IMG/VR virus record: IMGVR_UViG_3300044618_002542 | Location: 1-59,900 of that record | DNA length: 59,900 nt | Direction: 5' to 3' (one strand) | DNA from: a virus | Taxonomy: Duplodnaviria; Caudoviricetes | Shown here: piece after piece, positions 1,286-17,287 of the stretch | Position numbering within the stretch: the first letter of the stretch is position 1 | Layout of the letters: each line of letters begins with the position of its first letter | Made by a program: the position numbers and the translations under genes | The notes under the pieces: model-generated | Told to the model about the DNA's origin: nothing | The model's input: only the letters and a program-made list of their open reading frames with translations | Database searches by the model: none

Positions 1286-3313
1286 TCAAAACCTCTTCAT
1301 TTCCTTTTCAATAACTGGTTTCAAGCTTAACCCGATCCACTCACGCCAAAAGTAATCGCCATCCCGGCCTCTAGCGACTTCAATCTTCGGGACAATCGAC
1401 CGAACCCGTTTTGCGAATGCCTGCCGTGTCGATCGGTCGACTAGATCATTCGATCGGCACCAGTTTTGATAAGCTTCAAAACAGTCCGCCGCATTGACTT
1501 TGCCGCCTTCCTGGCAGCATTCCCAAACAAAAGCCGATACCGGGGAAGTCTCAATCCGCATCCAGTTAACCGAATCGGTCCCCGATTTCGGTTGCTTGAT
1601 CTTCCCGTTCTTTTCGGAGTAGAGCCGATGGCGGCCAAGAATCGCCCAGTTAAGTATCCCCGACAATTCTGACTGAATCCGCATTTCGACCCGCGGATCT
1701 TCTTTGCCGGCGTGGGTCTTATTCATGACCAAAATGATGATCCGATTCAGGATCGCGTCGGATGAATCCTTGAACAGCGGGATTTCATTCGAAAACAGCA
1801 TAAACCGAATCGGCAAATTGACCCCCGATAGGCTCGGCTTGTACTTCCGCTCGATCTCCTGGGGATCTTCGCCGACGATCGACAGGACACGCTCGGTCAG
1901 AACCGTGTAATCGATCCGGTCGCCAATTCGAGCATCGGGGATAACGGCTAAGGATTTACCGATCAAAGACGCCAAGCCAAACTGACCCGATAGCGTGGTC
2001 GGCGTCGGGGATGCTACCGACGAATGACCGATCATCGCTTTCACGAGCCGCATGATCGTACCCTTGCCTGACCGGGATTTTCCGATTACGCAAAGAAAGC
2101 GTTGCATCGAAGTGTCTTGCGTCAGCAAATAGCCAAACCACTCTTGCAAAGCGTCTATCGCCTCTTGGTCGCCCTCGAATTGCTCCCAGAGCCATTCTTG
2201 CCAGTAAAGACATTGGGCCTCGGGGTCGAAGTCATAATCCAGCTTCAAAGCCGAAAACCATTCGTGATTGTGAGGTCGAAGCGAACCCTCCAAATCACCC
2301 GACAATACCGCGTCGAGGTCGAGCAGTCCGTTTTTCATCGACACCCAATTTCGCCGCCGCCTGTCCGATAGGTGCGATGGCATTTCGACCGAACCGGACA
2401 ACGCGACCAAAGATTTCATGGCGGTCACGACATCGCGGATCAATCGGGTCGATACGTTCCGGACCTTTTTGGGCTTCTGCGGCTCCCCGGTCTCGATTTC
2501 TTTTCTTGCCCGTTCTTCCTCTTGAATTCGCCAAAGCCTTTCGAATTCGGCTCGAATCACTTTAAATAACTTGGCCTGTAGGTCGCTATCGCTGATCGGC
2601 GACCACAGGCCGGACTTCCATTTCCAGAATTCATCGCGCCAAAAAACTAGCTTTCCGCCGGCGAATTCCGAGTAAAACTGCAGATTTAACCGAGCAAGCC
2701 GAGTGTGGTCGTCGTCCGATTCGTCGATATCTACGCTGCCAGGGGTGAATTCTCGCGGCCCTTCTGGTATCGCTGCGATCGCGGTCTCGGCCGTCTGAAT
2801 TCTGACCGGACCGTCGATTTCCGCCGGTTGTTGAATCTGGCCGGATCGCCCTATCGCAAGCAATCGAGCGTATATCTCCTGGTCGTCGAGCCCTTCAAGC
2901 CTCTGATCGGCTATCCAGTCTCGAACGTCTTTTCCGTCCGTCGGGGCGATCGGATAAGGGAGAGTCGCATTCCGAACCGTCTTCGCGAATTTCGCGATCA
3001 CCGGCCCCCATCCGGGCCGCTTTCCGCCGTTCGGTTTACTGACCCATGTCGCGCCATCTTGGCCCGGCACGTCGCAATCGTGAATCACGATAACTTCGCC
3101 CGCACCCGCAAATCGTGAGCAGTATTCGACCGCTTCAGGTTTGGTCGCGTTTTCGTTCGATCCGTAAATGTTGGTCGTTACGATATGCCGCGGCCGCCGA
3201 TCCTCGGGAAACGAGAGAATCAACGAACGAATTGCCGCCGCGTCGGGAAACCCTTCGCATTTCCAGATCAGTTCCGCCGGCTCGGACGGGTCGAAAATAA
3301 AGCCAAACGCCAT
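1286..3313 (-). CDS. P4/D5-family primase-helicase, C-terminal part (TOPRIM + D5_N + SF3 helicase + winged helix), lacking the Zn-binding domain
   Basis: IWKCEGFPD, HDCDVPG and KDVRDW TOPRIM motifs; NGLLDL and LQEWFGY; Walker A GKSRSGKGT; C-terminal FEAYQNWC. Confidence 0.88.
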   Translation of the reverse strand: MAFGFIFDPSEPAELIWKCEGFPDAAAIRSLILSFPEDRRPRHIVTTNIYGSNENATKPEAVEYCSRFAGAGEVIVIHDCDVPGQDGATWVSKPNGGKRPGWGPVIAKFAKTVRNATLPYPIAPTDGKDVRDWIADQRLEGLDDQEIYARLLAIGRSGQIQQPAEIDGPVRIQTAETAIAAIPEGPREFTPGSVDIDESDDDHTRLARLNLQFYSEFAGGKLVFWRDEFWKWKSGLWSPISDSDLQAKLFKVIRAEFERLWRIQEEERARKEIETGEPQKPKKVRNVSTRLIRDVVTAMKSLVALSGSVEMPSHLSDRRRRNWVSMKNGLLDLDAVLSGDLEGSLRPHNHEWFSALKLDYDFDPEAQCLYWQEWLWEQFEGDQEAIDALQEWFGYLLTQDTSMQRFLCVIGKSRSGKGTIMRLVKAMIGHSSVASPTPTTLSGQFGLASLIGKSLAVIPDARIGDRIDYTVLTERVLSIVGEDPQEIERKYKPSLSGVNLPIRFMLFSNEIPLFKDSSDAILNRIIILVMNKTHAGKEDPRVEMRIQSELSGILNWAILGRHRLYSEKNGKIKQPKSGTDSVNWMRIETSPVSAFVWECCQEGGKVNAADCFEAYQNWCRSNDLVDRSTRQAFAKRVRSIVPKIEVARGRDGDYFWREWIGLSLKPVIEKEMKRF

Positions 3314-3318
3314 AGCGT

Positions 3319-3504
3319 CTACCTACGCAACAAAAGCTTGACCGCCGCCGACAGGACCGCCACGACTGCGACCAATACCGTCACCGGCCAAAAAATCGCA
3401 AGCAAAATCATTGAGACGAGCCCGATCCGGCCACCCCGCGGGGAATCGAGAGCCCAGAACAGCAAACAGGCCACCACCCAATAAATCGCACCCAGGACCG
3501 GCAT
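3319..3504 (-). CDS. Small membrane protein with two hydrophobic segments
   Basis: Hydrophobic 61 aa ORF preceded by AAGGGG, first gene of the leftward arm. Confidence 0.65.
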   Translation of the reverse strand: MPVLGAIYWVVACLLFWALDSPRGGRIGLVSMILLAIFWPVTVLVAVVAVLSAAVKLLLRR

Positions 3505-3731
3505 TGTTTTCCCCTTGCGTTAGAGTTGCGGCCGGTTAATCTATCGTCCGCACCAGCCACAATCAACCACATTATCCACAATGTCCACAACTCGACAACG
3601 CGAAAAAAATTTAACCCGTTGCCACGCAAAGACTTGCGGCACAATCTTTTTTTCTCGCCCGATTTTCTGCTTGTCGGTGCCGATACACGTCGCTAGATTT
3701 TCAGCGTCCACACCGTCCACAGCGTCAACAG
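3505..3731. promoter_or_regulatory. Divergent promoter/control region with CCACA repeats and a consensus DnaA box (TTATCCACA, 3572-3580)
   Basis: Non-coding gap between divergent gene arms; six CCACA-core copies spaced about 9-10 bp apart in two clusters. Confidence 0.55.
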
Positions 3732-3944
3732 ATGGCTCAATACCTTAAATCGAAATGTCTCACCCCTGGTTGTCGCCGGCCGTCACGGGCTCGCGGTTGC
3801 TGCGAGTCGTGCTACCGGTCGCACTTACGGGCGGTTCGGTCGGGCAAAACGTCCTGGCGTCGGCTAATTGCGGAAGGGCTGGCCAGGGGTCGTGATCGAG
3901 TTTTGGCGCTGCGGGCTCGGATTGCTGCGGGGGTCCAGAAATGA
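3732..3944 (+). CDS. Small basic Zn-finger protein, possible regulator
   Basis: CLTPGC..ARGCCESCY Cys pattern; first gene of the rightward arm; stop overlaps the next start. Confidence 0.65.
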   Translation: MAQYLKSKCLTPGCRRPSRARGCCESCYRSHLRAVRSGKTSWRRLIAEGLARGRDRVLALRARIAAGVQK

Positions 3945-4492
3945 TGACCGAATTTTGTACGATCCTGCCGATGGCTCAGTCGATTGTCCGCGGGGTCCAT
4001 CTTTTAGAAACAAAAACTTTTCAATACCCCGTCACTGTTGCGTTTCTAGAATCGATGGCAGGCGAGTTTTCTCCGCATTCGGCCTGGATTATACCGGCCA
4101 GTAAAAATGTGATTGCCGGCTATATTGCAATTACCCGCGGGCTTGGGATCGACGGCAAGCCGGTCGTCTCGATCAACTCGATAGCGGTTGACAAGCCTTA
4201 CCGCCGCAGCGAAATCGGCGCGTCGCTTGTGGGTTTTGTGGTTGGAAGGGCGGCCGGTGGCGTGCGGGTTACCGCGACGGTTCCGGATTGTTCGGCCGGC
4301 GCTCAACAGTTTTTCAAGGCTTGCGGCTTTACTTGTGTCGCTATTTTGCGCAATTGCTACGACGAGGGCGGAGACGGGCTGTTATTCCTCTACCCTGGCA
4401 GCCAAGAACCACAGCCGAGGTTTTCCGGATCGGTCAATTGTGATTCTCCGATCAGACTTCGTTCCCGCATTGAATTTAAGGGTCGCCCATGA
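3941..4492 (+). CDS. GNAT (RimI-like) acetyltransferase
   Basis: SIAVDKPYRRSEIGASL (motif A) and AQQFFKACGF (motif B). Confidence 0.8.
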   Translation: MMTEFCTILPMAQSIVRGVHLLETKTFQYPVTVAFLESMAGEFSPHSAWIIPASKNVIAGYIAITRGLGIDGKPVVSINSIAVDKPYRRSEIGASLVGFVVGRAAGGVRVTATVPDCSAGAQQFFKACGFTCVAILRNCYDEGGDGLLFLYPGSQEPQPRFSGSVNCDSPIRLRSRIEFKGRP

Positions 4493-5274
4493 CTTCCGCA
4501 CCGATTATTTTCGACATTGAAACCGGGCCGCTTCCAGTCGAAAGGTTAAAATCGATCCTTCCGCCGTTTGATCCAGCGTCGTTAGGGAAGCATCCAGGGG
4601 AGTTTGATCCCGCGTCAGCCAAGCTGGGAAACGTAAAGGATCCGGCGAAAGTCGAAGCCAAAATTTCCGAATCGGCCGCGAAGCACGCCGCCGAGGTCGT
4701 CGATTTCGAAAAGCGATCGACCGAGGGCGAGCCTGCACACTGGCAGAAGATTGTCGATTCTGCGGCATTGTCCGCCGTGACCGGCGAAGTCTTGGCGATC
4801 GGGTTGTCGGGCAAGACCGACAAGATAATTTGCCAGGATCTTGACGCCGGAATCGACGAGCAATTTTTATTAGAACACTGGTGGAAGATTTATCGCGACG
4901 CGCGAGGATCGCAGAGAAAGCTTGTCGGATGGAACTCAAAAAACTTCGACGTTCAGTTCCTCGTTCAACGATCTTACATCCTGGGAGTCGCCGTCCCTGA
5001 TTCGATTTTGACCCCGACGGGCTACCTCAATCCGATATTCGTTGACCTTCGCGAAATCTGGTTGTCAGGCAATAAATTTAACGCACAGCCGGGAATGACG
5101 ACGCTAGATACCGTTGGCCGAGCCTTGGGGCTTGGCGGAAAAATGGAGGGCGTCACCGGTGCCGATTTTGCTCGATTGTTTGGCGATCCCGAAACCCGGC
5201 CGCAAGCCATCGAGTATTTACGGGGTGATATCGCCCTGACCCGTGCAATCGCCGAGCGTTTCGGCGTGGCGTAG
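4489..5274 (+). CDS. DnaQ/PolB-type 3'-5' exonuclease (DEDD)
   Basis: ExoI FDIET, ExoII GWNSKNFDVQFL, ExoIII YLRGD. Confidence 0.8.
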   Translation: MTSAPIIFDIETGPLPVERLKSILPPFDPASLGKHPGEFDPASAKLGNVKDPAKVEAKISESAAKHAAEVVDFEKRSTEGEPAHWQKIVDSAALSAVTGEVLAIGLSGKTDKIICQDLDAGIDEQFLLEHWWKIYRDARGSQRKLVGWNSKNFDVQFLVQRSYILGVAVPDSILTPTGYLNPIFVDLREIWLSGNKFNAQPGMTTLDTVGRALGLGGKMEGVTGADFARLFGDPETRPQAIEYLRGDIALTRAIAERFGVA

Positions 5275-5298
5275 TCTGTTAGTTTGGAGCATGAGAGC

Positions 5299-6297
5299 AT
5301 GAAAAGTTACGTTGAATTGGCTGGCAACATGCCAGCAATCGAAACCTTGGGGAAGTGGATCGCCGCTTCCGGGATGTTCGGAACGCTCACTTTGGCCCAA
5401 GGCCAAGTGATAGCGGCCCATTGCTTTATTACCGAAACCCCCCTGCTGGACTATCAGCGCCGTAACATGCTGGTCGGCAATCGGCCGGGAATTCCCTATG
5501 ACGCAATGGTCGCCGCGTTTCAAGAGGGTGGCGGGTCGCTAAAAGTTGTCGAAAAGTCGGCAAATGCTGCCAGGGTAGAGCTAACCGTTGGTGGGGTGAC
5601 GACGCCATTCGCGCTGACCTGGGACGAAGCCAAGCGAGAGCCGTTTGTTTATGGCGAAAAGGGGACGACCGAAAAAGAAATCGTACAGATGATTCGGGCC
5701 GAAAAATGGGCCGAACTTGAGAAGATCATGAAGCCGAAATATGCTTCGCCTCGATCCCGTGCTATCATGTTATGGGCTCGTTGCGTCTCCGATGCGATTC
5801 GCACCGTGGATCCGAAGGCCAATTTCGGCACGTACACCGAGGAAGAACTCGAAGATATACCGTCTTCGACACCCGCACCCACCGCACCCGCGGCGGCATC
5901 TACTACGCAGCCGGTTCACCCTCCGGCGCCGCCGCGGGTGCCTCTATCCACAGTCTCGACGCCGCCGGCACAGGCTGAGCCGGAAGTCATGCGCCCGGTT
6001 CCGCCGGCGGCCGTCGAGACGATTGAATCGGCGGTTTCTGAGCGGATCGACGGCCCGGCCAGTGAAGAACAGCGGGTCCGGTGTCTCGAATTGCTGGCCG
6101 AAATCGAGCCCGCATTTCCTGGGGTCAAAGCCAAGTTGGCCGAAAAACTCAAATCGGCAGGCATCCAGGGAGGGATTCGGGGATTGTCGGTCGCCGAGGC
6201 TGGCTCACTTGTCAAAGCGTTGGAAAGTCGAGCGATAGACGCATTTTTTACGCTCGATTTGAAGGGGCACTATCAGCCCCCTTTCGATGGAAAGTAG
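5299..6297 (+). CDS. RecT-like single-strand annealing protein
   Basis: MLWARCVSDAIR..GTYTEEEL motif; follows an exonuclease; Pro-rich linker; start moved to ATG 5299, which has GGAG upstream. Confidence 0.65.
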   Translation: MKSYVELAGNMPAIETLGKWIAASGMFGTLTLAQGQVIAAHCFITETPLLDYQRRNMLVGNRPGIPYDAMVAAFQEGGGSLKVVEKSANAARVELTVGGVTTPFALTWDEAKREPFVYGEKGTTEKEIVQMIRAEKWAELEKIMKPKYASPRSRAIMLWARCVSDAIRTVDPKANFGTYTEEELEDIPSSTPAPTAPAAASTTQPVHPPAPPRVPLSTVSTPPAQAEPEVMRPVPPAAVETIESAVSERIDGPASEEQRVRCLELLAEIEPAFPGVKAKLAEKLKSAGIQGGIRGLSVAEAGSLVKALESRAIDAFFTLDLKGHYQPPFDGK

Positions 6298-6470
6298 GCG
6301 CGGATCTGTTCCGCGATTGTTCGCCCCATGTCGCGAACTTGGTTGATCGGTTTGGAGCCGAGCGGGTATGGGACGCCGGCATTAAGATTCTTGGTTATCC
6401 GCCCACCTGGGCACCTGACGGTTTTGAAATCCTCACACTTGCAGAAAGGTTAGAAAATGGCAAAGCGTAG
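6279..6470 (+). CDS. Candidate -1 frameshift extension of the RecT-like protein
   Basis: C CCT TTC heptamer at 6279-6285; the -1 frame is open to TAG 6470 and fills the gap to the next gene. Confidence 0.5.
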   Translation, partial: PFRWKVGADLFRDCSPHVANLVDRFGAERVWDAGIKILGYPPTWAPDGFEILTLAERLENGKA

Positions 6471-7062
6471 CCTCACCACCCCAACCGCTGACGATCTTGC
6501 AGACAGCGGACGCCTCGACACTCCGGGCGTGTATCATGTTCTGGTGAAGTCGGTCAAAGATATGGAAAAGATCAACGGCGAAGCCGGGGAGGGCTTCACG
6601 GTTGAACTTCAAGTCTTGGCCGGCCCGCAGCAGGACAAGACAATCAAGCAATGGTTCTCGGACGGCCAGCCATCGGACCGAGACGGCGGCGAATTCGCAC
6701 GCAAACGGCAGACGGTTTTCTTGATAGCTGCTAACGTGATTACCCCGGTTCAATTGAACGGCGAAGCGGTCGAGTTTGATCCGGAAGAGGCGAGCGGATC
6801 GCAATTGGTCGTGAAATTCAAGTCGAACGAATACACGAACAAAAAAGGCGAAAAGGCTACCTCGATCGAAGTTGCCTATCTCGATATTTTCCACGTTGAC
6901 GACCCGCGAAAACCTGCTTGCGACATTAACGCCGGCGCGTTGAACCTGATCGACAAAAAGCTTCGTCGAGACGCGACGTTTTTTGCCCCGCTTGCGTCTT
7001 CGTCGAGTCGATCGTCTAAACCGGCGCCCCCGGCCCAAACGTTCGATTCGTCGGACCTATAG
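6457..7062 (+). CDS. Phage single-stranded DNA-binding protein, DUF669-like
   Basis: PGVYHVLVKSV start, acidic tail FDSSDL, position after the annealing protein. Confidence 0.6.
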   Translation: MAKRSLTTPTADDLADSGRLDTPGVYHVLVKSVKDMEKINGEAGEGFTVELQVLAGPQQDKTIKQWFSDGQPSDRDGGEFARKRQTVFLIAANVITPVQLNGEAVEFDPEEASGSQLVVKFKSNEYTNKKGEKATSIEVAYLDIFHVDDPRKPACDINAGALNLIDKKLRRDATFFAPLASSSSRSSKPAPPAQTFDSSDL

Positions 7063-7070
7063 CGGCCCGT

Positions 7071-7150
7071 CCTCACCGTCTTAGCGCCGCCGGGGAGCAA
7101 GTGAGGGCTCCCGCCGTGTTCATGCTCCCACGGCACCGGCGGCGCGTTTT
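7071..7150 (+). ncRNA. Candidate structured RNA (three-way junction) followed by a U tract
   Basis: P1 7084-7093/7136-7145, P2 GGAGC/GCTCC, P3 GCCGTG/CACGGC; loop GTGAGG can pair with CCTCAC at 7071-7076. Confidence 0.45.
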
Positions 7151-7191
7151 TCCCAGCCAATACAAGGCTAGGCGGTCGGACCCTCCAAAAA

Positions 7192-7237
7192 GCCGCCGCG
7201 TTCCGTTCGTTAAGCCAGCGCGGCGGCCTGCCTTTTT
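7192..7237 (+). terminator. Possible intrinsic terminator
   Basis: GCCGCCGCG/CGCGGCGGC stem with a T run a few bases downstream. Confidence 0.45.
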
Positions 7238-7251
7238 ATGGATTAAATGCG

Positions 7252-7491
7252 ATGCCGCTTAGAGATTACCAGACAAAGCCGAAGGGTGACGAAATTCGAA
7301 TTCGATTGGACAGCGGCGCCAACATCCAAAGCGAAAATTGGGAAATAGTCTTGCCTCCCGATCTTGGTTTTGACACCAAGGCCGACTGGGACGCTGCCAG
7401 CGAAGACGAAAAGCTCAAGGCTGTTCAAGAATATTTTTATGGCAATGGTTACCCCGATTGGTCATGGGATGACGAAAGCACCGCAAAATAG
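7252..7491 (+). CDS. Hypothetical acidic protein
   Basis: ORF in operon orientation with protein-like composition. Confidence 0.6.
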   Translation: MPLRDYQTKPKGDEIRIRLDSGANIQSENWEIVLPPDLGFDTKADWDAASEDEKLKAVQEYFYGNGYPDWSWDDESTAK

Positions 7492-7503
7492 GAATTTTTT
7501 ACG

Positions 7504-7818
7504 ATGGACCTCGACGCACCGATTAACGTCCAAAAGTTTCAGGACAAAGCCGCAAACACCGTTGACGACCTACTGAGCCTTCAAGGGCCGAACGGCGCGT
7601 CCGCGGTCGATCGAATTCAAATCGAAGCCCGAAAGCTGGTTGAAGCCCGCAAGTCGGGAGACCTGCCCGGCGCCGTCGCGTCGTCGGCTCTGATCACCGT
7701 TTTTCTATCGTCCGTCCTGCACGATTGCGGGTTCGAGCTAGAACGGGCAATGGCGATGGGGTTGTGGGCGGTCGAGCACGAAATCGCGTACCTGAATCGA
7801 GACGAGCCGAAGGGATAA
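7504..7818 (+). CDS. Hypothetical helical protein
   Basis: ORF packed within the early operon. Confidence 0.65.
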   Translation: MDLDAPINVQKFQDKAANTVDDLLSLQGPNGASAVDRIQIEARKLVEARKSGDLPGAVASSALITVFLSSVLHDCGFELERAMAMGLWAVEHEIAYLNRDEPKG

Positions 7819-7825
7819 TTCTGGC

Positions 7826-8596
7826 ATGACCGACCTACCGATTAACAAAATTGTTTGCGGCGACAACGTAGCGACGATGGCGACGTTCCCATCGGAATCG
7901 ATCGACCTAGTTGTTACTTCGCCGCCGTATGACAACCTGCGGACCTACGGCGGCCACACGTGGGATTTCGAAGGAGTCGCTCAACAGTTGTGGCGAGTAA
8001 TTAAGCCGGGCGGCGTGGTCGTTTGGGTGGTCAATGATGCAACCGTAAACGGCAGCGAAACCGGCACGAGCTTTCGGCAGGCGCTGCGGTTTATGGAGAT
8101 CGGGTTTTGGTTGCATGACACGATGATTTGGGAAAAGACTGGCAGCGGCGCTCTCGGCAGCCCCGATTGCTATGCACAAAACTTCGAGTTTGCATTTGTT
8201 CTTTCAAGTGGAAAGCCTAAGTCACTTAATCTGATAAGCGATCGTCGGAATGTAATTACATCCGGCCTGGTTGCTGTCAATTCTGGACTGAAGGCCGACA
8301 AGTCGAGCACTTCGCGAATTGTCGAGCGAAAGGAATACGGCAAGCGAACGAATGTCTGGAAGGTCGCACCAGCACAAAGAGCAGATCACCCTGCGCCGTT
8401 TCCAGACGATTTAGCCCGCGATCACATCCTAAGCTGGTCAAACGAAGGCGACATCGTGCTGGACCCGTTCAGCGGAAGCGGCACGACGGCCAAGATGGCG
8501 AAGCATAACGGGCGGAAATACATCGGCATCGAGATCAACCCGGAATACTGCGAGATCGCGGCCAAGCGGCTGGAGCAACAGGTTTTCGATTTTTAA
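7826..8596 (+). CDS. Orphan DNA methyltransferase, N4-C/N6-A, beta class
   Basis: Catalytic VTSPPY precedes SAM-binding DPFSGSGTT; HPAPFP motif. Confidence 0.93.
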   Translation: MTDLPINKIVCGDNVATMATFPSESIDLVVTSPPYDNLRTYGGHTWDFEGVAQQLWRVIKPGGVVVWVVNDATVNGSETGTSFRQALRFMEIGFWLHDTMIWEKTGSGALGSPDCYAQNFEFAFVLSSGKPKSLNLISDRRNVITSGLVAVNSGLKADKSSTSRIVERKEYGKRTNVWKVAPAQRADHPAPFPDDLARDHILSWSNEGDIVLDPFSGSGTTAKMAKHNGRKYIGIEINPEYCEIAAKRLEQQVFDF

Positions 8597-8614
8597 TTTA
8601 ACTAAGAAAAACCA

Positions 8615-8908
8615 ATGGTCAGCAAATTAAACCAGTCCGATAGAGCCGTTCTGTCGTTACTTACAGCCGGGAACGGCTCATTCATTACTTGCGAATCCGG
8701 GCCGGTGGGTCGGGCAAGAGTCGTCGTGAGGTTTCCGAGTGTTGAGCACGCTCAAGCATTCCATCGAGCGTTGATTAAATGCGGCGACGCTGCCAGGAGG
8801 TTGATACAGGACGAAGTTCGAGAGCAGGAGAAAGTTTCGATGGCAACTCCGATTGTTTACAGGGTGCAGCCGACGAACGACGGCGAACAACAATACGAGA
8901 AAGGTTAA
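8615..8908 (+). CDS. Hypothetical protein
   Basis: ORF in operon. Confidence 0.6.
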   Translation: MVSKLNQSDRAVLSLLTAGNGSFITCESGPVGRARVVVRFPSVEHAQAFHRALIKCGDAARRLIQDEVREQEKVSMATPIVYRVQPTNDGEQQYEKG

Positions 8909-8914
8909 GCAAAA

Positions 8915-9385
8915 ATGTCAGACGAAAACTGGCCAGAATACAAAGCTAGCGATTTGGCTGAAGCGATTAAAACTTCAATCGACAAAGCCAAAAAGTCGAT
9001 CGGACTCAATTCGCAATTCATTTTAAGGCCAGTAGTAGCCAAGCCGATTAAAGGATTAAGGGGAACGGGCCGGACCACAAAAATGCTGGCGGTGGCCAAG
9101 AATCTTGCGGCCGAGAACCCGAATCGAAGAATTGTCGTGGTAATGGGTAATTTCGCGGAAGCAAACAAAGCGAGAATTTTACTTCCAGAGAAAATTAAAG
9201 TAATTCACGAACAAAACAGCGAGTGGTGTTGGAAAGAAAGAAGAATTCGCGGATTTGACAGAGAAACGGTTTACTTAATTGATCACTATGCAATTGAAAA
9301 AATGTTGAGAAGGGAGTTTGGCGATTTAATTGACCTGCTCCACGAACACGATCCAGAGACGATGTTTCTTCGGTATCAGCGATAG
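8915..9385 (+). CDS. Hypothetical protein with a degenerate P-loop-like motif
   Basis: RGTGRTTKML; AT-richer than neighbouring genes. Confidence 0.6.
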   Translation: MSDENWPEYKASDLAEAIKTSIDKAKKSIGLNSQFILRPVVAKPIKGLRGTGRTTKMLAVAKNLAAENPNRRIVVVMGNFAEANKARILLPEKIKVIHEQNSEWCWKERRIRGFDRETVYLIDHYAIEKMLRREFGDLIDLLHEHDPETMFLRYQR

Positions 9386-9462
9386 AAATTACTTGCTAAC
9401 CTATCACCCCGCCGAATGCGTAAAACGGCAGCCCCGCAACACCCGAACCCCAGAGCAGTCCG

Positions 9463-12105
9463 ATGAGCAGTACACTTGAAATAATCGCCCGCTATCAAGG
9501 CGAGCGCATGCGCTGGCCGATCGACGACCCGGAATCGCCAGGGGATTTTACCCTGATCGGTCTGGCGGCCGTCTGCGAACAATCGCGGGAAATCTGCAAA
9601 TCCGCCGGGATCGACACCGACGAGCCAGTCACAATCAAAGGAATTGCAAACGACGAAGAATTGGAGCGAAACGGCTCTTACCGTTTTTTCGGCTCGTTTT
9701 CGTATTACACAAACCGCCGGACCGGCGACCGCGAAAAACAATTCCATTTTCGATCGTTCACCCGCCATGTCCCGCACGACCCGGACGGGCTTGCCGACTA
9801 TCTAGCCGCGGCCGGCAAAGGGAACGGGATCGGACACCGAAAGGCGATGGCGCTAGTCAGGGCGTTTGGTTGCGAATCGGTATTGTCGAAATGCAAAGAC
9901 GATATCGCCGCGGTGATGGCCGAAACAGGGATCAAAGAGGAACAGGCAAGAGCGTTTGCCGAATTACTTAAAGCCCGTCAGGCTACCGAGAATTCCACCC
10001 TGGAAGTGGAACGGATCTTAGCGAAGAAGAAATTCCCCCGCGCCCTAACGCGCAAACTGATAAAGACCTGGGGCGCCGAAGCCCCACAGCGAATTCATGA
10101 TGATCCGTTTTCGCTGATGCAATTTCGTGGAGTTGGGTTCTTACTTGCCGATCGTCTTTGGATCGATCTAGGCAAGGATCCCGCAGCGATTCGCCGGCAA
10201 GCCGCGTACATTTGGCATGAAGTCCACACGTCGCGCGACGGCCACGCATGGCACGACGTAGAGGCGATCGCGGTCAAGCTCCGTCGAGCAATCGGCGCAA
10301 AAGCGAACCCCCGCGACGCGATATTAGCCGGGAAGGAAATTTTCGCGAAATCGCCGAACGAGTTTGGAGCGATTGCGACTGCTCGGAGTGATTCGAGCGG
10401 CCGATACGATCCGAAGGGCGGAAAAGTTTGGGTCGCTGACGGAAAAGACGAAGAATCGGAACGGTGGGTCGCTGATTTGGTTTCGGCCGCGGTAACGGAA
10501 GTCCGGCCGGTTTACTACTACCGCCAGGACGATCCTCAGCCGACGGCGGCGAAGATACTCGATTCGGCGCGATGCCAGCGATGTTATCGGCCGTTGACCG
10601 CCTCCGATATTCACGTCCTGCACGGTCGGCCGTATGGGCCGACGTGTATCACGCACGTTGACCCGAGAGGGACCGCGGAAATCGTCTCCCAGGAAGAATG
10701 GAACGAACGAAACGAGATCAAGCCACAAGAAGTCTCGCCGGCGAAGCTGGTTAGCGTCCCCGAAGTATCGCTCTGGCCGGACGAATCGGAAATCGAGGGG
10801 ATCAGCGACCACCAGCGAGAGCAAATCGGCAAGTCGTTGACTGCCAGGGTAGGTTTACTCGGGGGCTCACCGGGGACCGGAAAAACATACACGATTGCGG
10901 CATTGATCAAGGCGATCGCACGGGGCGGGCGGGTGCCGCTCGACCAAATCGCGATCGGGGCGCCGACCGGAAAAGCCGCGGTTCGATTGACCGAATCCCT
11001 GCACGCTTGCGGACTCAGCGTCTACGCTCGGACGTGGCATTCCCTCCTGGGAGTCGCGAAGGCCGGCGACGGCGAATCGGAAGAATGGGGGTTCGTTCAC
11101 GGGCTCAAACAGCCGTGGAGCTATCGAGTCATAATCGGCGATGAGACTTCGATGGTTCCAGCCGGCTTGATGGCGTCGATACTCAAAGCCCGGCCGAACG
11201 GCTGCCACGCTCTTTTTGTCGGTGATGCAAACCAGCTTGCCCCCGTTGGGGTCGGCGCCCCGTTCCGCGATTTTATCGGGGCCGGTCTGGCATACGGCGA
11301 GCTTCGCGAAATCAAACGCAATTCCGGCGGCATTGTCGAAGCCTGCGCCGATATTCGCGATCGACGGCCGTGGGCCGCGAATTACTGCGACCCCGGCCAA
11401 AACCTTTGGATCACCGGTGACCGCACGCCGGCAAGTCAAATTGCAAGAATCTTGTCGCTGATCGAAAACTGCCCCGGCGATCCGGTTTGGGACTGTCAAG
11501 TCTTAACGGCGGTCAACCAGCGGTCGGAGTTATCGCGGGAAGTCCTGAACCATATCCTGCAGGATCGACTAAACCCGAATCCTCCGGTTGAAGGAACCGA
11601 CTTTAGAATCGGCGATAAAGTCGTCTGTCTATCCAACGGCGGGTACGATCCGACCGACGACACTGAATCCGATGGGCAAATCTATGTCGCGAACGGCGAA
11701 ATCGGCCGGGTGCGGGAAATCATGCCGGGCCGGATGGTTGTTACGCTCGAATCCGGCGAGCGCGATAAATCGATCGTCGTCTTACGCGGTCCCAAGAGCA
11801 CCGAAGGCGACGCGACCAACGGTTGCCCGTGGGATCTTGCTTACGCCATGTCGGTTCACAAGTATCAGGGAAGCGAGCAGAAGACGGTCATCGGCGTTCT
11901 GGACAACTATTTCGGCGCGAAGATGCTTTGCGACCGTGCCTGGATTTACACGCTGATCAGCCGAGCCAAGCACTTTTGTCAATTGGTCGGGACGAAGGAA
12001 ACCGCCGAGTTGTTTTGCAAGGTTTCCCGAATGCACTTGCGAAAAACGTTTCTTGCCGATCGCATTCGCGAAAAACTTTACTCGCACGACACCGAGGGGT
12101 TGTAA
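9463..12105 (+). CDS. recD2: RecD2-like SF1B helicase with HhH N-terminus and an inserted Zn finger
   Basis: GIGHRKA and GVGFLLAD HhH motifs; GSPGTGKT, APTGKAA, DETSM, GDANQL, AYAMSVHKYQGSE, YTLISRAK. Confidence 0.9.
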   Translation: MSSTLEIIARYQGERMRWPIDDPESPGDFTLIGLAAVCEQSREICKSAGIDTDEPVTIKGIANDEELERNGSYRFFGSFSYYTNRRTGDREKQFHFRSFTRHVPHDPDGLADYLAAAGKGNGIGHRKAMALVRAFGCESVLSKCKDDIAAVMAETGIKEEQARAFAELLKARQATENSTLEVERILAKKKFPRALTRKLIKTWGAEAPQRIHDDPFSLMQFRGVGFLLADRLWIDLGKDPAAIRRQAAYIWHEVHTSRDGHAWHDVEAIAVKLRRAIGAKANPRDAILAGKEIFAKSPNEFGAIATARSDSSGRYDPKGGKVWVADGKDEESERWVADLVSAAVTEVRPVYYYRQDDPQPTAAKILDSARCQRCYRPLTASDIHVLHGRPYGPTCITHVDPRGTAEIVSQEEWNERNEIKPQEVSPAKLVSVPEVSLWPDESEIEGISDHQREQIGKSLTARVGLLGGSPGTGKTYTIAALIKAIARGGRVPLDQIAIGAPTGKAAVRLTESLHACGLSVYARTWHSLLGVAKAGDGESEEWGFVHGLKQPWSYRVIIGDETSMVPAGLMASILKARPNGCHALFVGDANQLAPVGVGAPFRDFIGAGLAYGELREIKRNSGGIVEACADIRDRRPWAANYCDPGQNLWITGDRTPASQIARILSLIENCPGDPVWDCQVLTAVNQRSELSREVLNHILQDRLNPNPPVEGTDFRIGDKVVCLSNGGYDPTDDTESDGQIYVANGEIGRVREIMPGRMVVTLESGERDKSIVVLRGPKSTEGDATNGCPWDLAYAMSVHKYQGSEQKTVIGVLDNYFGAKMLCDRAWIYTLISRAKHFCQLVGTKETAELFCKVSRMHLRKTFLADRIREKLYSHDTEGL

Positions 12106-12605
12106 TGCAGATTTACGCTTTGAACGGCTACCTTTACTCGATTGAACCGCGATTAAAACCCGCCCTGGCAGATTACGTCGTGCAGTTCCCGTATCACGCA
12201 AATTGGACACCGAGACGGGCCGAGGCGCTATCGGCGACGATCCGGAGCCCTTGCATCCTGATCGGATTTTCAGACGGAGCCGATGCGGCGGCCAGAATTG
12301 CGAAATCAAATCCGAACGTCAAAGCCCTGTTTTTTCATTCCGGACTAGACAGCGGAATAAAACTTCCCGATTCGGTTGATTTCGTTGCGTATCGAACGAC
12401 TGGCGATCGCACCCCGACCTACCAACAAACAAAACGGTTTTATTGGCGGCAGCGAGACGGGGTAATGGTTGAACTCGTTCCGGTTGCGTTTGACGATCCA
12501 ACGCGATTCGAGCGGACGTTCTTGACTCCGCTTGGCCATCAGTTTCACAACGCTATCCCGCACTTGGTTTCGGCGATCGGGGAGGTCATGAAAAAATGGT
12601 CCTAG
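12105..12605 (+). CDS. Small alpha/beta-hydrolase (esterase-like)
   Basis: Nucleophile elbow LIGFSDGA, GD and C-terminal GHQF; ATG overlaps the helicase stop (TAATG). Confidence 0.65.
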   Translation: MQIYALNGYLYSIEPRLKPALADYVVQFPYHANWTPRRAEALSATIRSPCILIGFSDGADAAARIAKSNPNVKALFFHSGLDSGIKLPDSVDFVAYRTTGDRTPTYQQTKRFYWRQRDGVMVELVPVAFDDPTRFERTFLTPLGHQFHNAIPHLVSAIGEVMKKWS

Positions 12606-13393
12606 ACTCGAAATTTAAGCTTTTGGTCGATCATTTCGGGATACTTGACCCCGAAGACTGGCAGGCGATTCGTCCGGCGGAAATATCGGCCGTTCCGTCG
12701 ATCGGCTCATCGACGTTAAATCACTTGCGGTTGATGCTGGCCAATCGAGGACTAACCCTCCTGGAAGATCGGACCCCCGAACACTGGCAAGCGGAACTAG
12801 GGTTAAAACGAGGGGCGACGGAGATATCGCAAACCGATAACGCGATCGTTTCGGAGTTTCGGATCCTGATCGACACCAGAGAGCAGAATCCGTTCACGTT
12901 TACGGGAATTAAGGCCGATGCCCGCCAGGGTGGAAAACCCATCCTGGTGGCCACAGAGCGGACTACGCTTGGCGAATCACACGGAGATTACACCGTCCCC
13001 GAATTGATCGACTACTGTCACGTCGAGCGGAAAAGCCGCGAGGACGCATGGGGGACGGTACTCGGTTGGGGTGATCGCCGGGAAGCATTTCAGCGGACGC
13101 TTGAGTATCTAGCAGAGATCCCGGTTGGGCTCGTCGTCGTTGAAGCGACGTGGGGCGATTGCCTAAATAACATGCCCGAACACGGCACCCGTACAAAATC
13201 CAGTAACCAGAAGATTTTCAATCGGCAAGTGTTAGCATGGGGCCAAGACTACGGCGTCCAGTGGCATTTTTTTGACGATAGACGACTGGCCGAAGTCAAT
13301 ACGTTCCGAATCCTTGAACGACAATGGAGGAAGCAGAAAGAAGCACAGAAAAGAGCACAGAAAGAAGCAAGCGAAACCGATTACGAACTATAG
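12596..13393 (+). CDS. ERCC4/XPF-family nuclease
   Basis: IDTREQ, GDY, VERKS and VVEA motifs. Confidence 0.87.
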   Translation: MVLDSKFKLLVDHFGILDPEDWQAIRPAEISAVPSIGSSTLNHLRLMLANRGLTLLEDRTPEHWQAELGLKRGATEISQTDNAIVSEFRILIDTREQNPFTFTGIKADARQGGKPILVATERTTLGESHGDYTVPELIDYCHVERKSREDAWGTVLGWGDRREAFQRTLEYLAEIPVGLVVVEATWGDCLNNMPEHGTRTKSSNQKIFNRQVLAWGQDYGVQWHFFDDRRLAEVNTFRILERQWRKQKEAQKRAQKEASETDYEL

Positions 13394-13422
13394 ACCGAAT
13401 CCCTCACACAAAAGCCCAAACG

Positions 13423-15159
13423 ATGAAACGAACATTACAGCCAGGAAAGATTGTCAAATCACAAGCCCCGCAGGCGGAACCGGCCGCCGAAGCAAAGCCC
13501 GAAGCAAAGCCCGAATCGAACGCCAAGCCGGCGACCGTCGGCGTCAATTTTCTGGACGAAATCTACAGCGATCAGAAGTTGATTTTGAGCCTGCAAACGA
13601 AGATAGCCGGGTTGGTCGAGCAGATTGAAGGCACAAAAGCTCAACTATCGGAAGCGATGACGAAGCAAGCCCGATTCCTTCGCTCTCTTCCAGCCGCGGT
13701 AATTGCGGCTCACGAAGGCCGAAGCGTCGAGGACGTTCAGCAGGAGATCGACGGCGCGGTAATGGATGGGGCCCGTGTTATTTATCGCGGTGTAACGATC
13801 AGGAGCGAGGGATCGGTAATCGGCACGGCGATAGAATCCGGCGAACCCCAGGAGCTTATCAAGGTTGCCATCCCGCCGCCGATCGTCGTTACCGAATCCG
13901 CGCCGGCTGGCGGCCCGGTTACCGCCAAGCCTGCACCCGATACCGCAGTCGTTAGCAACACTGAGCCGTACCCCGAAGGCTGGAACGAAATCCCGACACA
14001 ATCGATTTTGGCCGACGTTCGCGGGCTAGGGCCGAATCGGATTGACGCCATTGTCGAAAAGTTTCCAAAGCTCTCGGACCTGCACAATTCGCGAGTTTTG
14101 GCCGAGTCCCAAAGCCGGTTTTGGTTCAGCGAATTTCCGAAAGGGACCGGGAAGAATATCGTCGCCAGAATTGCGGAATTGATGGACCGGCTCAAGGCCA
14201 AGCAGGACGAACCAGAAGCCGAAGAATCCGCCGAGGTTTGGATCGACGATCCGGTCGAACCTGCCACGGAATCGCCCAAGGCCGATTCGCCACACGTCCG
14301 GCGGGTCAAATCGGTCTACAAGTCGGTTATGTCCGATCCAAGTTTCGATTCACTTTCCGGAGGTGATAGCGACCTGTCGTGGGTCGCCGGGTGGGACGCC
14401 GCGATCGACGGATACGATTACACGCAATGTCCCGAGGAACTTGGGATCGCCGAAGTAACGGCGTGGATCAAGGGGTGGGCGTGCTGGTATGAGCACGAAA
14501 AGCCGAAGCTCGAAGCGATCGAAGCGGGCGAGCAAGGCAAGGTTACCGCGGAGGTTACCACGGAGGTTACCGAACCGACACCCGAGCCGGTTACCGAAGG
14601 CGATTTTGATCAAGACGTAATCGAGCACCGAGCGTTTATTATCCGAACGATGGGGTGGCTTCGCGAAAACCAAGGGGAAATCGGGAAGCGATCGGCAAAC
14701 GACCCGGCGTGGTGGGACCGCGGTTACGCGGCTTTTGCAGAGGGCCAAAGCTTCTACATTTGCCCCGATGCTGAATTGCCGGGCTACGATTTTGAGATCG
14801 ACGAAATCGATCAAATCGACTGGATCCGCGGGTGGGTTGCTGGGCAGATGGAGCAAGCGGCTAAGGTTGATGAGGTTGCCGACGAAGTTACCAGCAAGGT
14901 TACCAGCGAGGTTACCAGCGAACCGCCGATTCTGTCGTTTGATCAGAAAAAAGCGACTGGTTATCACGAAGCGTCAAGCGACTCGTCACCGCGACGGCCG
15001 AAGGTCAGTAAGAAAGCTTACACCGATGGGTATTCTGCTGCACTCCGCGGTATCGAGTCGCCCGATCCGGCTCAATACGAGGATAGCGAGTCGATCCCGC
15101 AACTAGCCGACTGGTATCGGGGGTGGCTCGACGGTCGCGAGCTTGACGCGGACCTATAA
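13423..15159 (+). CDS. Acidic multidomain protein: coiled coil, HhH-like motif, three RMF-like repeats
   Basis: Three G[YW].A...G...(CP)...W..GW units; VRGLGPNRI; start taken at ATG 13423. Confidence 0.7.
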   Translation: MKRTLQPGKIVKSQAPQAEPAAEAKPEAKPESNAKPATVGVNFLDEIYSDQKLILSLQTKIAGLVEQIEGTKAQLSEAMTKQARFLRSLPAAVIAAHEGRSVEDVQQEIDGAVMDGARVIYRGVTIRSEGSVIGTAIESGEPQELIKVAIPPPIVVTESAPAGGPVTAKPAPDTAVVSNTEPYPEGWNEIPTQSILADVRGLGPNRIDAIVEKFPKLSDLHNSRVLAESQSRFWFSEFPKGTGKNIVARIAELMDRLKAKQDEPEAEESAEVWIDDPVEPATESPKADSPHVRRVKSVYKSVMSDPSFDSLSGGDSDLSWVAGWDAAIDGYDYTQCPEELGIAEVTAWIKGWACWYEHEKPKLEAIEAGEQGKVTAEVTTEVTEPTPEPVTEGDFDQDVIEHRAFIIRTMGWLRENQGEIGKRSANDPAWWDRGYAAFAEGQSFYICPDAELPGYDFEIDEIDQIDWIRGWVAGQMEQAAKVDEVADEVTSKVTSEVTSEPPILSFDQKKATGYHEASSDSSPRRPKVSKKAYTDGYSAALRGIESPDPAQYEDSESIPQLADWYRGWLDGRELDADL

Positions 15160-15182
15160 CCCGGCCGATCGGAGGTCGGGCT

Positions 15183-15917
15183 ATGGCGAAGTATGAAATC
15201 AAAGCGCTCAAGGCCGCGGCTTTGGGCGCTTGGCCGGCGATCGTCGAGCGGGTCGGCGGGATATCCGACGACTACTTGGCGAATCGACACGGCCCCTGCC
15301 CTCGATGCGGCGGGAATACTCGGTTCCGAGTGTTCGAAGATTTTGACCGGACCGGCGGGGCGGTGTGTTCCCATTGCGGAAAATTCGGCGACGGTATCGC
15401 GCTCGTCCAGTGGGCGACCGGCCAGAGCTTTTTACAGACGGTGGAGTCGATCGGCGATTTTCTGGGAGTCGCGCCGGCGGGGAAGACTGCCAGGGGTGGT
15501 TCAGCAAAGACGAAACCGGCTGAGGCGGCCAAGAAATCGACGAAGGAACCGAAAAAGGAAACGACAAAGGGAAAAGAGCCCGACGAAGCCTTGAAAACGG
15601 GCCAGGACGAGACGAAAGCCGATCCGATGCGGAATATCCAGTGGATCGCCTGGAATCACCCCTTGGTAGCATTTTGGTGCTTCAGAAAGGGGTTGTCGGT
15701 CGAGTCGCTTCCGGCGGGGTCGAGACTTTGCACTTACCGCAAGCGATACACCTGCCTTGCGGTTCCGGCGAAGTCGATTGGTGGGGAAGTCTGTGCGTGG
15801 TTGATTTACGAAATTGGCGGGGGGCGTCTCCCGCATTTTGAAAAGGGATCAAAAGAGGTAGCGGAATGGTTGAAAGTGAAAATAATCAAGACGAAATCCG
15901 AAGGTTTGCAAAAGTAG
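15183..15917 (+). CDS. Primase N-terminal part: P4-alpha-type Zn-ribbon plus the N-terminal catalytic subdomain
   Basis: HGPCPRCGG.TRFR...CSHCG.GDGIALV; then RKGLS..LAVP..GEV; strong GGAGG RBS. Confidence 0.85.
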   Translation: MAKYEIKALKAAALGAWPAIVERVGGISDDYLANRHGPCPRCGGNTRFRVFEDFDRTGGAVCSHCGKFGDGIALVQWATGQSFLQTVESIGDFLGVAPAGKTARGGSAKTKPAEAAKKSTKEPKKETTKGKEPDEALKTGQDETKADPMRNIQWIAWNHPLVAFWCFRKGLSVESLPAGSRLCTYRKRYTCLAVPAKSIGGEVCAWLIYEIGGGRLPHFEKGSKEVAEWLKVKIIKTKSEGLQK

Positions 15918-16171
15918 TCGGGTGCGGAAGCTGGCACGATTGCGGGAGCGTTTCTTACGTCAAGGCGGCAGAAATCGCAATTCGGAAAGAACTTGAAATC
16001 CGGGAGGGACAGCAATTTGCCGGATTTTTGCATCAGCTTTGCAAATTTGACCACCTTAAAGCCGCGGTTCTTGTCGCCGACAACGACACCTTTACTGGCA
16101 GTCGTTTAATTAGGGCGAACATCTCGCTCAAATTTGAGTTTTTTACTCGTCCACCGGAGTCGAATGAATGA
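15866..16171 (+). CDS. Hypothetical protein
   Basis: Fills the gap; stop overlaps the next start. Confidence 0.5.
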   Translation: MVESENNQDEIRRFAKVVGCGSWHDCGSVSYVKAAEIAIRKELEIREGQQFAGFLHQLCKFDHLKAAVLVADNDTFTGSRLIRANISLKFEFFTRPPESNE

Positions 16172-16497
16172 ATTCCGACGTTCACGCCCCGTTCATGAAA
16201 ATCGGCCCGGCGACGCTCAAGCGAGTTGCCAACGAAAACTGCTTTATTGAGTGGGAGGTCTGGCACGAAATTGAAGAAATTGGAGCGATCCAGTTTTTTG
16301 AGGACGGATCACTTCACGCTCGAAAAGTAAATCGGTACGGCGATTTGATTTACTCGATTGTGAATCTCTCTAGCTGGGTTCTGCTCCCAGTCCCGGTTGT
16401 TCTGATCAGATTTGCAACTATCGCCATTCTTGCGGCAAACGGGATTGTTTGGTCGGAAGACCGATCGACGATTGACTCCATTTTTACAGAGGATTGA
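16168..16497 (+). CDS. Hypothetical protein
   Basis: GGAG RBS, operon packing. Confidence 0.6.
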   Translation: MNSDVHAPFMKIGPATLKRVANENCFIEWEVWHEIEEIGAIQFFEDGSLHARKVNRYGDLIYSIVNLSSWVLLPVPVVLIRFATIAILAANGIVWSEDRSTIDSIFTED

Positions 16498-16503
16498 ACG
16501 AGC

Positions 16504-16854
16504 ATGAGCAAGGAAAAAGAAGCGGCAGAAGCCAACAAAGGCCGGACGTTACTAGTCCCGGACGAGGTAAAGTTTTACCAGCAAGCCGGCGAGATATTCG
16601 GGCGTGTTCATGAGTTACTTCCGTCGGGTCGTCTAAAAATGGAAGTTTTCCTAGAGCCAGGAAAGATGCGATGGATGTCGTACACCTGGGACGATTGGAT
16701 ATCCGGAAAGCCTTGGAGCGGTTCGTTTATCGTCTTACCGGATACGCTTAGAACGGTTTCGAGTATTGAACAATTTTCCCGCGAAATGTTTCGAGAGCTT
16801 AGCCGAATGCATGAATGGCATGGCGGGAAATGCGACCACGAAAAACAGCCTTGA
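16504..16854 (+). CDS. Hypothetical protein
   Basis: GAGG RBS, operon packing. Confidence 0.65.
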   Translation: MSKEKEAAEANKGRTLLVPDEVKFYQQAGEIFGRVHELLPSGRLKMEVFLEPGKMRWMSYTWDDWISGKPWSGSFIVLPDTLRTVSSIEQFSREMFRELSRMHEWHGGKCDHEKQP

Positions 16855-17022
16855 AAACTGAATCGTGATTTATTATTGTCTTAGACGATTGACCGCATTG
16901 AAGCGAACAGCGGGAGAGAACGACCAGTACCAGCCGGTGACCGAATAGTTCGGATAGTTCCGTGAGCACATGCCGAGAAATCGGAAATACTGCACGGTGA
17001 ACAAAAACGGCGAAGCCCGAGT

Positions 17023-17044
17023 CGTGACAGCCGGAGAGACGGCA
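17023..17044 (+). repeat. 22-bp direct repeat, copy 1 (CGTGACAGCCGGAGAGACGGCA)
   Basis: Identical to 17266-17287; contains a GCCG/CGGC hairpin with a purine loop. Confidence 0.9.
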
Positions 17045-17047
17045 GAC

Positions 17048-17265: not shown

Positions 17266-17287
17266 CGTGACAGCCGGAGAGACGGCA
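17266..17287 (+). repeat. 22-bp direct repeat, copy 2
   Basis: Identical to 17023-17044; followed by a T-rich run. Confidence 0.9.

Follow-up and report, generated by a model that had tools for sequence, protein, structure and literature searches.

The 59,900-nucleotide stretch of tailed-phage DNA analysed here (Duplodnaviria; Caudoviricetes; IMG/VR record IMGVR_UViG_3300044618_002542, positions 1 to 59,900; hereafter the window) carries two genes on opposite strands, priN and priC, whose products probably form a single two-subunit primase-helicase. Sequence comparison and structural modelling argue for an evolutionarily fixed fission of a P4-alpha/D5-type primase-helicase, the primase part of which has the fold of T7 gp4 and DnaG. 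PriN (P0001) would contribute the zinc ribbon that reads the template and, joined to it by a flexible linker, the N-terminal subdomain of the RNA-polymerase domain, and PriC (P0002) would contribute the TOPRIM metal-binding fold, the D5_N domain and a hexameric superfamily 3 (SF3)-type helicase. Because relatives keep the same layout, the pieces most likely reassemble to work.

Two Open Reading Frames Hold Complementary Parts of One Enzyme

The coordinates and ends that a preliminary description of the sequence gave for the two open reading frames (ORFs) are both correct (Table 1). PriN is recognised over residues 34-72 by the Pfam family PF08273 (Zn_Ribbon_Prim), at 48.6 bits against a cut-off of 23, and the cysteines of this zinc ribbon are invariant or nearly so (alignment A1). 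The N-terminal subdomain that follows the linker ends in a conserved KVK...G motif. For PriC, TIGR01613, the "phage/plasmid primase, P4 family", scores 145.3 bits (cut-off 108.7) and PF19263 (DUF5906) 54.2 bits (cut-off 27.6), while the Pox_D5 model, at 19 bits, falls under its cut-off of 21.4. Residues 1-117 of PriN match positions 10-126 only of the 667 positions of PHROG 510 ("DNA primase"), and PriC matches positions 211-754 of the 772 of PHROG 6088, likewise "DNA primase". The spans of these profiles indicate that complementary parts of a primase reside on the two ORFs. The residues typical of a TOPRIM fold (E20, G21, D24, D79, D81 and D129 of PriC) are invariant in alignments A3 (5 sequences), A4 (40) and A5 (41). 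A sequence search of the PDB gave nothing useful for PriN and, for PriC, just the helicase part of the SaPI5 primase-helicase (7ola, phmmer E = 3.5e-10). No close relative was found among GenBank phages, where the top match to PriC has 28.6% identity and the matches to PriN span residues 1-103 only.

The preliminary description held that these parts are normally one polypeptide in P4-alpha/DnaG-like primase-helicases, and proposed to align the concatenated halves with an intact homologue. Such a homologue is P0007, a single protein of 915 residues with which the two halves are collinear from end to end. Its residues 10-238 correspond to residues 4-241 of PriN (41% identity, E = 9e-46), and its residues 243-914 to residues 2-671 of PriC (40% identity, E = 1e-162). 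At the joint, four residues of P0007 (DRNK) stand against LQK, the stop codon and the initiator methionine in the window, so that no residues are lost or inserted. The four-residue joint leaves no room for an intein, in keeping with the earlier observation that no intein motif is present, and shows both ORFs to derive from a single ancestral gene. An in-frame TAG is found three codons 5' of the ATG of priC.

Relatives of the window proteins are fused as a rule. A search of 1.84 billion cluster representatives with PriN gave 3279 matches at E <= 0.001, in both short and long proteins. In seven of the nine metagenome loci whose match includes the C-subdomain, the reading frame stays open into TOPRIM; L010 (225 aa) stops instead, and the remaining locus reaches the end of its contig. 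Among the eight corresponding loci in species genomes, seven are fused and one (L091, in the Planctomycetaceae contig G001) is split; the closest full-length relatives of PriN in species genomes are all from Planctomycetota. Members of the P4-alpha/D5-type family carry all domains on one polypeptide, whereas in the window these are divided between two ORFs on opposite strands, and PriN and PriC are accordingly classed here, by sequence, as a split variant of this family (TIGR01613, PF08273).

The Break Separates the N-Terminal Subdomain from the TOPRIM Fold

An AlphaFold 2 model of the fused P0007 has a mean predicted local distance difference test (pLDDT) of 86.7. In this model five segments fall below a pLDDT of 50, namely both termini, two long linkers (residues 107-141 being the counterpart of the PriN linker) and residues 238-242, which are the split point. 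The full-length fused model has ASFV PrimPol, SaPI5 and MPXV E5 helicases as structural matches.

The primase part was matched to known structures with P0157, a 277-aa segment of a fused homologue (from L016), instead of with the window's own chains. This segment is modelled as one compact unit (pLDDT 92.2, predicted template modelling score 0.88). It matches the T7 primase fragment 1nui_B over model residues 1-246 (Z 15.1, root-mean-square deviation 4.3, 195 residues aligned), and further Aquifex DnaG (2au3_A, Z 14.2), Twinkle (Z 13.3-13.6), the Bacillus subtilis DnaG core (Z 13.0), the Escherichia coli DnaG core (1dd9_A, Z 12.5) and T4 gp61 (8dvf_H, Z 11.0). Foldseek agrees, with E values of 1.6e-6 to 3e-5. 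Structures that consist of TOPRIM only match from model residues 101-113 onward, with Z of at most 8.9, and the cut in the window corresponds to model residue 103, an invariant glycine. The cut thus separates the N-terminal subdomain from the TOPRIM fold, and the models place it in a low-confidence surface loop just past the conserved glycine.

In T7 primase, the N-terminal subdomain and TOPRIM jointly constitute the RNA-polymerase domain; its DNA-binding cleft is basic, and the catalytic acidic residues belong to TOPRIM (PMC2910064). The preliminary description of a primase split through its catalytic domain therefore holds at the level of this domain, but not for TOPRIM itself, which is uncut and has all of its acidic residues (E20, D24, D79, D81 and D129) in PriC.

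The Split Is Conserved and Both Halves Are under Purifying Selection

Relatives of PriC are found on four IMG/VR contigs and relatives of PriN on three, L002 having the C half only. The three contigs with both halves, which have 87-95% nucleotide identity, agree in gene order and orientation and retain the stop codon of the N half and the start codon of the C half. C halves of 683-705 aa, with 69-74% identity, begin at the same FGF strand. Scans of IMG/VR with P0003, P0004 and P0007 found no relatives.

The same layout is present in a bacterial genome. In G001, a 1.13-Mb Planctomycetaceae contig, the C half lies at 377700-379715 (-) as an open frame of 706 aa with no stops, and the N half at 400947-401662 (+), so that some 21 kb lie between the halves, which are again divergently arranged. 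Identity to the window proteins is approximately 45-55%. The order in this prophage is structural-gene homologues (338.9-369.5 kb), C half, the same plus-strand module and N half. Taken together, the sequences indicate that the split is old and fixed in a lineage and is no recent rearrangement. The lake-water phage group to which the window belongs probably infects planctomycetes, since a syntenic prophage of about 63 kb resides in this Planctomycetaceae contig.

The ratio of nonsynonymous to synonymous substitution rates (dN/dS) against close relatives is 0.12-0.16 for the N half (three relatives) and 0.02-0.03 for the C half; both are low, which points to purifying selection on both halves. 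Within the N half, the ratio is 0-0.024 for residues 1-103, which include the zinc ribbon, 0.24-0.57 for the linker and 0.12-0.13 for the N-terminal subdomain. That selection of this kind acts on the two halves although their loci are separate and lie in divergent operons indicates that neither has fallen out of use.

Predicted Association of PriN and PriC

Residues 140-244 of PriN were co-folded with residues 1-175 of PriC in three runs, alongside three controls. The interaction prediction score from aligned errors (ipSAE) was 0.89 in all three runs, against 0.00 for the best of the controls; the runs share at least 96% of their contacts, and the pLDDT of the partner is 85-86. In the modelled interface, residues 2-8 of PriC lie against residues 194-199 and 204-207 and the last strand (232-236) of PriN with an expected error of 0.4-0.8 Å, so that the interface appears in the model as a simple break within a sheet. 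The first strand of PriC would thus dock on the PriN beta-sheet, and this docking would restore, with no covalent bond, the cleft that the N-terminal subdomain forms with the acidic residues of TOPRIM. Each helicase ring could then bear detachable PriN subunits. With priC heading one arm and priN located inside the other, the two genes would belong to divergent transcription units with one common intergenic region, from which it was inferred earlier that replication needs both arms expressed.

The earlier proposal of a two-subunit primase built from the halves of one enzyme is in this way upheld as a prediction by collinearity, by the kept layout, by selection and by co-folding with clean controls, the co-folding of the two chains having been suggested at the outset as a check. 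Several points weigh against it. No match to the Pfam Toprim model was found on PriC at E <= 1, and the TOPRIM assignment derives from the invariant residues and from how a homologue with 39% identity to PriC residues 11-650 is folded. The mark used to judge the co-fold is reached by 58 of 80 solved complexes and by 2 of 110 mismatched pairs, counts that apply only roughly here, since the alignments were built for this analysis and hold 17 and 5 rows. The co-fold pass may also reflect memory of, or likeness to, the solved single-chain primases of T7 and DnaG. Lastly, the N half in G001 is frameshifted in the variable linker, which may represent an assembly error or decay.

It could thus be argued that the two genes no longer cooperate. 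PriC would then act as a helicase alone, its TOPRIM being inactive or self-sufficient or host DnaG carrying out the priming, and PriN would serve, for example, as a zinc-ribbon DNA-binding regulator. The frameshift in G001 is in line with this view, and so are the standalone primase-type zinc ribbons of group 2 jumbo phages, which indicate that detached parts can persist (PMC7824862). Nevertheless, such uncoupling is distinctly unlikely: PriN is under purifying selection over residues 150-244 and not only in its ribbon, it keeps the residues of the fused enzyme (K169, Y185, P195, Y209, G213, P217 and the KVK motif), the acidic residues of the PriC TOPRIM are all present, and the modelled interface consists of exactly the strands that flank the cut.

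Origin of the Split

Syntenic relatives with a fused gene suggest how a two-subunit primase-helicase may have arisen. A Pirellulaceae chromosome (G002) carries, on one strand, an exonuclease, a RecT-like protein, a single-stranded DNA-binding protein (SSB)-like protein, a RecD-like helicase, a nuclease, a weak match to the 611-aa protein encoded upstream of priN and a fused primase-helicase of 841 aa. Similarly, in L034, L036, L043 and L020 a fused primase comes after a helicase and/or nuclease encoded on its own strand. A homologue of window gene 54370-55656 is found past the fused gene, in the same direction, in L019, L020 and L022; in the window this gene, like window gene 53873-54373, lies downstream of priC. 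The genes that precede the fused gene have thus stayed with the N half and those that come after it with the C half, and one inversion explains the present map. The inverted segment would have extended from the head of the replication module to the loop in the primase gene. On this comparative evidence it is fairly probable that a single event long ago inverted the replication module, one of the breakpoints falling in the loop of a once-fused gene, and the inversion origin put forward in the preliminary description is plausible in that the fused gene occupies the priN site behind the same upstream genes. It was also correct, by arithmetic, that inverting approximately 3314-15917 places the halves head to tail.

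Other observations weigh against an inversion. Neither a repeat above chance nor a recombinase is seen at the breakpoints, and no recombinase family was matched by the 32 of 84 window ORFs scanned. The match to window gene 53873-54373 downstream of the fused gene in L020 and L022 is weak (E about 2e-4). In fused relatives, no homologues were detected of the genes that are now downstream of priN (15866-18723). The flanks of the fused gene in G002 have no genes in common with the window beyond the replication module. Rfam detected no intron or other RNA near the junctions, a single tRNA excepted.

An imperfect inverted repeat (11/15; 3316-3330 vs 15906-15920) had been noted at the two junctions. 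It is present, but its level is that of chance: of 300 randomly chosen pairs of 60-nt windows, 64 contain a 15-mer complementarity of at least 11, and the repeat therefore backs no particular mechanism. Within 700 nt of each junction, no match of greater length was found. This bears on the notion that the segment of about 3314-15917 undergoes a reversible, programmed inversion, with a fused gene in part of the population. Inversion would indeed set the stop codon of priN directly before the ATG of priC, and a minor orientation could escape detection, since contigs drop rare variants. Yet the TAG would still part the two frames after inversion, and Gin/Cin/Hin-type switches have inverted repeats at both ends of the segment, where the window has just the chance-level repeat as the sole one at its junctions. 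In line with the remark that no recombinase is visible, none of the 32 of 84 ORFs scanned, 23 of which lie within 1-18.7 kb, matched a recombinase family. No joints are reported in the contigs of four runs (from which rare variants drop out), the orientation is common to three other assemblies with both halves and to a prophage, and separate start and stop codons are kept in relatives at approximately 70% identity. A programmed switch is, therefore, very unlikely.

The possibility that a chimeric or mis-oriented contig broke up a contiguous primase gene is effectively refuted by other assemblies. The window is of metagenomic origin, and the two runs that contain it best may be its own source; even so, contigs of other lake-water runs bridge both junctions (X3 spans 2971-3607 and X5 spans 15713-16046), the three IMG/VR contigs and the 1.13-Mb Planctomycetaceae contig have the same split, and both ORFs have proper start and stop codons with no residues lost or gained, so that an assembly artefact is hardly credible. 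Equally far-fetched is a rejoining of the halves by protein trans-splicing: cyanobacterial DnaE, which is joined in this manner from two halves with distant genes on opposite strands, offers a resemblance, but PriN ends three residues past the conserved glycine and PriC starts one residue ahead of the FGF strand, and the N and C segments of a split intein (approximately 100 and 35 aa), which would have to flank the break, are not there and cannot fit at the four-residue joint.

Short Forms across the Family

The fission in the window may have counterparts elsewhere in the family. The C-subdomain is present in 78 of the 150 best cluster representatives. Fused forms make up 52 of the 78, another 23 stop no more than 35 residues past the C-subdomain and 3 are unclear; some of the short-form proteins may be truncated gene calls. 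In a tree of 79 rows, consisting of these 78 and the window and made by a quick method, the short/fused label takes 15 changes, against approximately 20.5 for shuffled labels, and well-supported branches force at least 4 changes. The window clusters with P0003 and P0004, both of which are short (support 95-98). This distribution in the sequence data hints that genes have been split more than once at the loop that joins the N-terminal subdomain to TOPRIM. A tentative extension, which is rather doubtful at present, is that this loop is a recurrent natural fission point of primases with the T7/DnaG fold and that the detached protein, with zinc ribbon and N-terminal subdomain, serves the helicase-bound TOPRIM as an activator and specificity subunit that can dissociate and is limited in dosage.

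Within the same family, breaks of another kind are also present. L014 (L014:2789-5672) encodes the zinc-binding domain (ZBD) and a complete RNA-polymerase domain (RPD) in a 394-aa ORF, the helicase having an ORF of its own some 0.9 kb further downstream, and L090 has a primase-only ORF of 369 aa (L090:280-1389). In these cases, the cut lies after TOPRIM, at the linker between primase and helicase, leaving the catalytic domain whole, whereas in the window it lies before TOPRIM.

Genome Context

The coordinates of the two genes, their domains and the surrounding regions are collected in Table 1. All genes of the window are on the minus strand except for those in 3732-18723.

Table 1. Positions of priN, priC and associated features in the 59,900-nt window
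Feature	Position	Strand	Remarks
priC (P0002)	1286..3313	-	675 aa; docking strand (predicted), TOPRIM, acidic linker, D5_N, SF3/D5-type helicase, C-terminal Pox_D5-like domain
P-loop core of D5/SF3-type helicase	1757..2086	-	P0002 residues 410-519; GKSRSGKGT
D5_N domain	2183..2533	-	P0002 residues 261-377; PF08706, 25.2 bits vs cut-off 22.4
TOPRIM fold	2834..3289	-	P0002 residues ~9-160; E20, G21, D24, D79, D81, D129
N-terminal strand of P0002	3290..3310	-	Residues 2-8, AFGFIFD; predicted to join the P0001 beta-sheet
ORF of 61 aa	3319..3504	-	Ends 5 nt ahead of the priC start codon; no Pfam family
Divergent intergenic region between arms	3505..3731		227 bp; from the ORF map
Replication/recombination module between halves	3732..15159	+	Syntenic in G001 and G002
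priN (P0001)	15183..15917	+	244 aa; zinc ribbon, flexible linker, N-terminal RNA-polymerase subdomain; TAG at 15915-15917
Primase-type Cys4 zinc ribbon	15282..15398	+	P0001 residues 34-72; C39, C42, C62, C65
Lys/Glu/Pro/Ala-rich linker	15492..15629	+	P0001 residues 104-149; length and sequence vary in alignment A1
N-terminal (beta-rich) subdomain of T7/DnaG-type RNA-polymerase domain	15630..15905	+	P0001 residues 150-241; from alignment to fused homologues

One sigma-70-like site is found on the minus strand of the divergent intergenic region, running from 3598 to 3571, where shuffled sequences give a mean of 0.3. Three of the five copies of GTCCACA in the window (3583-3589, 3706-3712 and 3715-3721) are also located in this region, where their clustering is conspicuous although the window-wide count is not above chance; the clustered copies may be candidates for an operator or iteron.

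The module between the halves encodes an acetyltransferase-like protein, a PolB-exonuclease-like protein, a RecT-like lead, an SSB-like protein, a DNA methyltransferase, a RecD/Dda-like helicase, an ERCC4-type nuclease and the 611-aa protein. The standalone PolB-exonuclease-like protein is encoded at 4489-5274 (+) (PF10108, 29.3 bits; PHROG 403) and is followed at 5284-6297 (+) by a protein of 337 aa whose nearest Atlas clusters are RecT-like, a lead with a score of 0.95. Both genes are conserved in G001 and G002 and, from their sequences, look like an exonuclease/annealase recombination pair. The 611-aa protein is encoded directly upstream of priN, at 13324-15159 (+). It has no family match in Pfam, PHROG, PDB or Atlas, and just two weak Rmf/CrpP-like matches (E = 1e-4 and 4.5e-4); its counterpart in G001 has 24.5% identity, and the weak match in G002 likewise comes directly ahead of the primase. 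The 32 window ORFs scanned include no recognisable DNA polymerase.

The sole tRNA gene of the window, for tRNA-Thr (anticodon TGT), lies at 17048-17116 (+), downstream of priN in the plus-strand arm. The prophage in G001 (G001:C1:338876-401662; loci L170-L172 and L175-L178), of approximately 63 kb, is syntenic with the whole window, and its homology stops just past the priN homologue; an attachment site may, consequently, lie around the tRNA region. Among the structural genes, an ORF of 2259 aa at 34106-40885 (-) is conserved only in parts in this prophage.

In L001-L004, the two ends of the window (1 and 59900) adjoin each other, separated by sequence that has no counterpart in the window. 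This extra sequence amounts to approximately 0.35-0.5 kb in L001, L003 and L004, and in L002 there is an unaligned gap of approximately 1.4 kb. Since the ends are neighbours in these loci, the sequences suggest that the phage genome measures about 60 kb, perhaps slightly more, and that the window is a nearly complete, circularly connected copy of it.

Comparison with Known Systems

Single-chain enzymes of the P4 alpha/D5 type, such as P0007 and the Planctomycetota prophage genes in L092-L096, have the same domains, order and conserved residues as PriN and PriC; the nearest fused form is 40-41% identical across the two halves, and P4 alpha itself is 37.6% identical to PriN residues 3-103. The difference lies in the cut between the N-terminal subdomain and TOPRIM and in the location of the two genes on opposite strands, 11.9 kb apart from start to start.

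T7 gp4 and bacterial DnaG have in common with the window proteins the fold made up of N-terminal subdomain and TOPRIM, the zinc domain on a flexible linker and a basic cleft opposite the TOPRIM acids (PMC2910064), but they are single chains whereas the window enzyme would be two. When the ZBD and RPD of T7 primase were purified apart, neither showed detectable template binding (PMC2910064). That separation was made at the ZBD linker, whereas the cut in the window is inside the RPD. The helicases differ as well, since the T7 primase is joined to a superfamily 4 (SF4; DnaB-like) helicase and the window protein has a D5/SF3-type one.

Group 2 jumbo phages are reported to encode a standalone primase-type zinc ribbon beside DnaG-like primases and thus resemble the window in that a normally fused primase part is encoded separately; in their case, only the zinc ribbon is described as detached (PMC7824862). 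The detached subunit of the window adds half of the catalytic domain, and its gene and that of its partner are in divergent operons.

In T4-like phages, an essential DNA-metabolism enzyme is likewise divided within a functional region, as in Aeh1 nrdA (mobE), T4 topoisomerase 39/60 (mobA) and gene 43A/43B of phage 25, and the polypeptides reassemble, activity of the split enzyme having been demonstrated for NrdA and gp43A/B (PMC2988022). These splits are tied there to a homing-endonuclease insert or an intercistronic spacer (PMC2988022). In the window, by contrast, no mobile insert is seen. Its halves are, moreover, on opposite strands with 11.9 kb between them, whereas T4-like split halves typically stay adjacent on one strand. 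No report was found in the open-access literature searched of a primase that is cut inside its RNA-polymerase domain or whose halves lie in divergent operons.

Implications

The split has a practical consequence for annotation: unless it is recognised, the 244-aa "zinc-ribbon protein" and the 675-aa "helicase" look unrelated and the phage appears to be without a complete primase. If the detached protein were indeed a dissociable and dosage-limited subunit, separate expression of the two arms would let the phage time or throttle priming. More generally, the current view of DnaG/T7-type primases is that the zinc domain, the N-terminal subdomain with its basic cleft and the TOPRIM metal site have to share one chain, or that as a minimum the subdomain and TOPRIM have to belong to one folded domain. 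The persistence of these parts on two proteins in one lineage would show, if the sequence evidence and the models are correct, that no covalent bond is required to re-form the catalytic cleft. The lineage would thereby offer a natural system in which to determine how the zinc domain and N-terminal subdomain reach TOPRIM, and with what stoichiometry they do so on the helicase hexamer.

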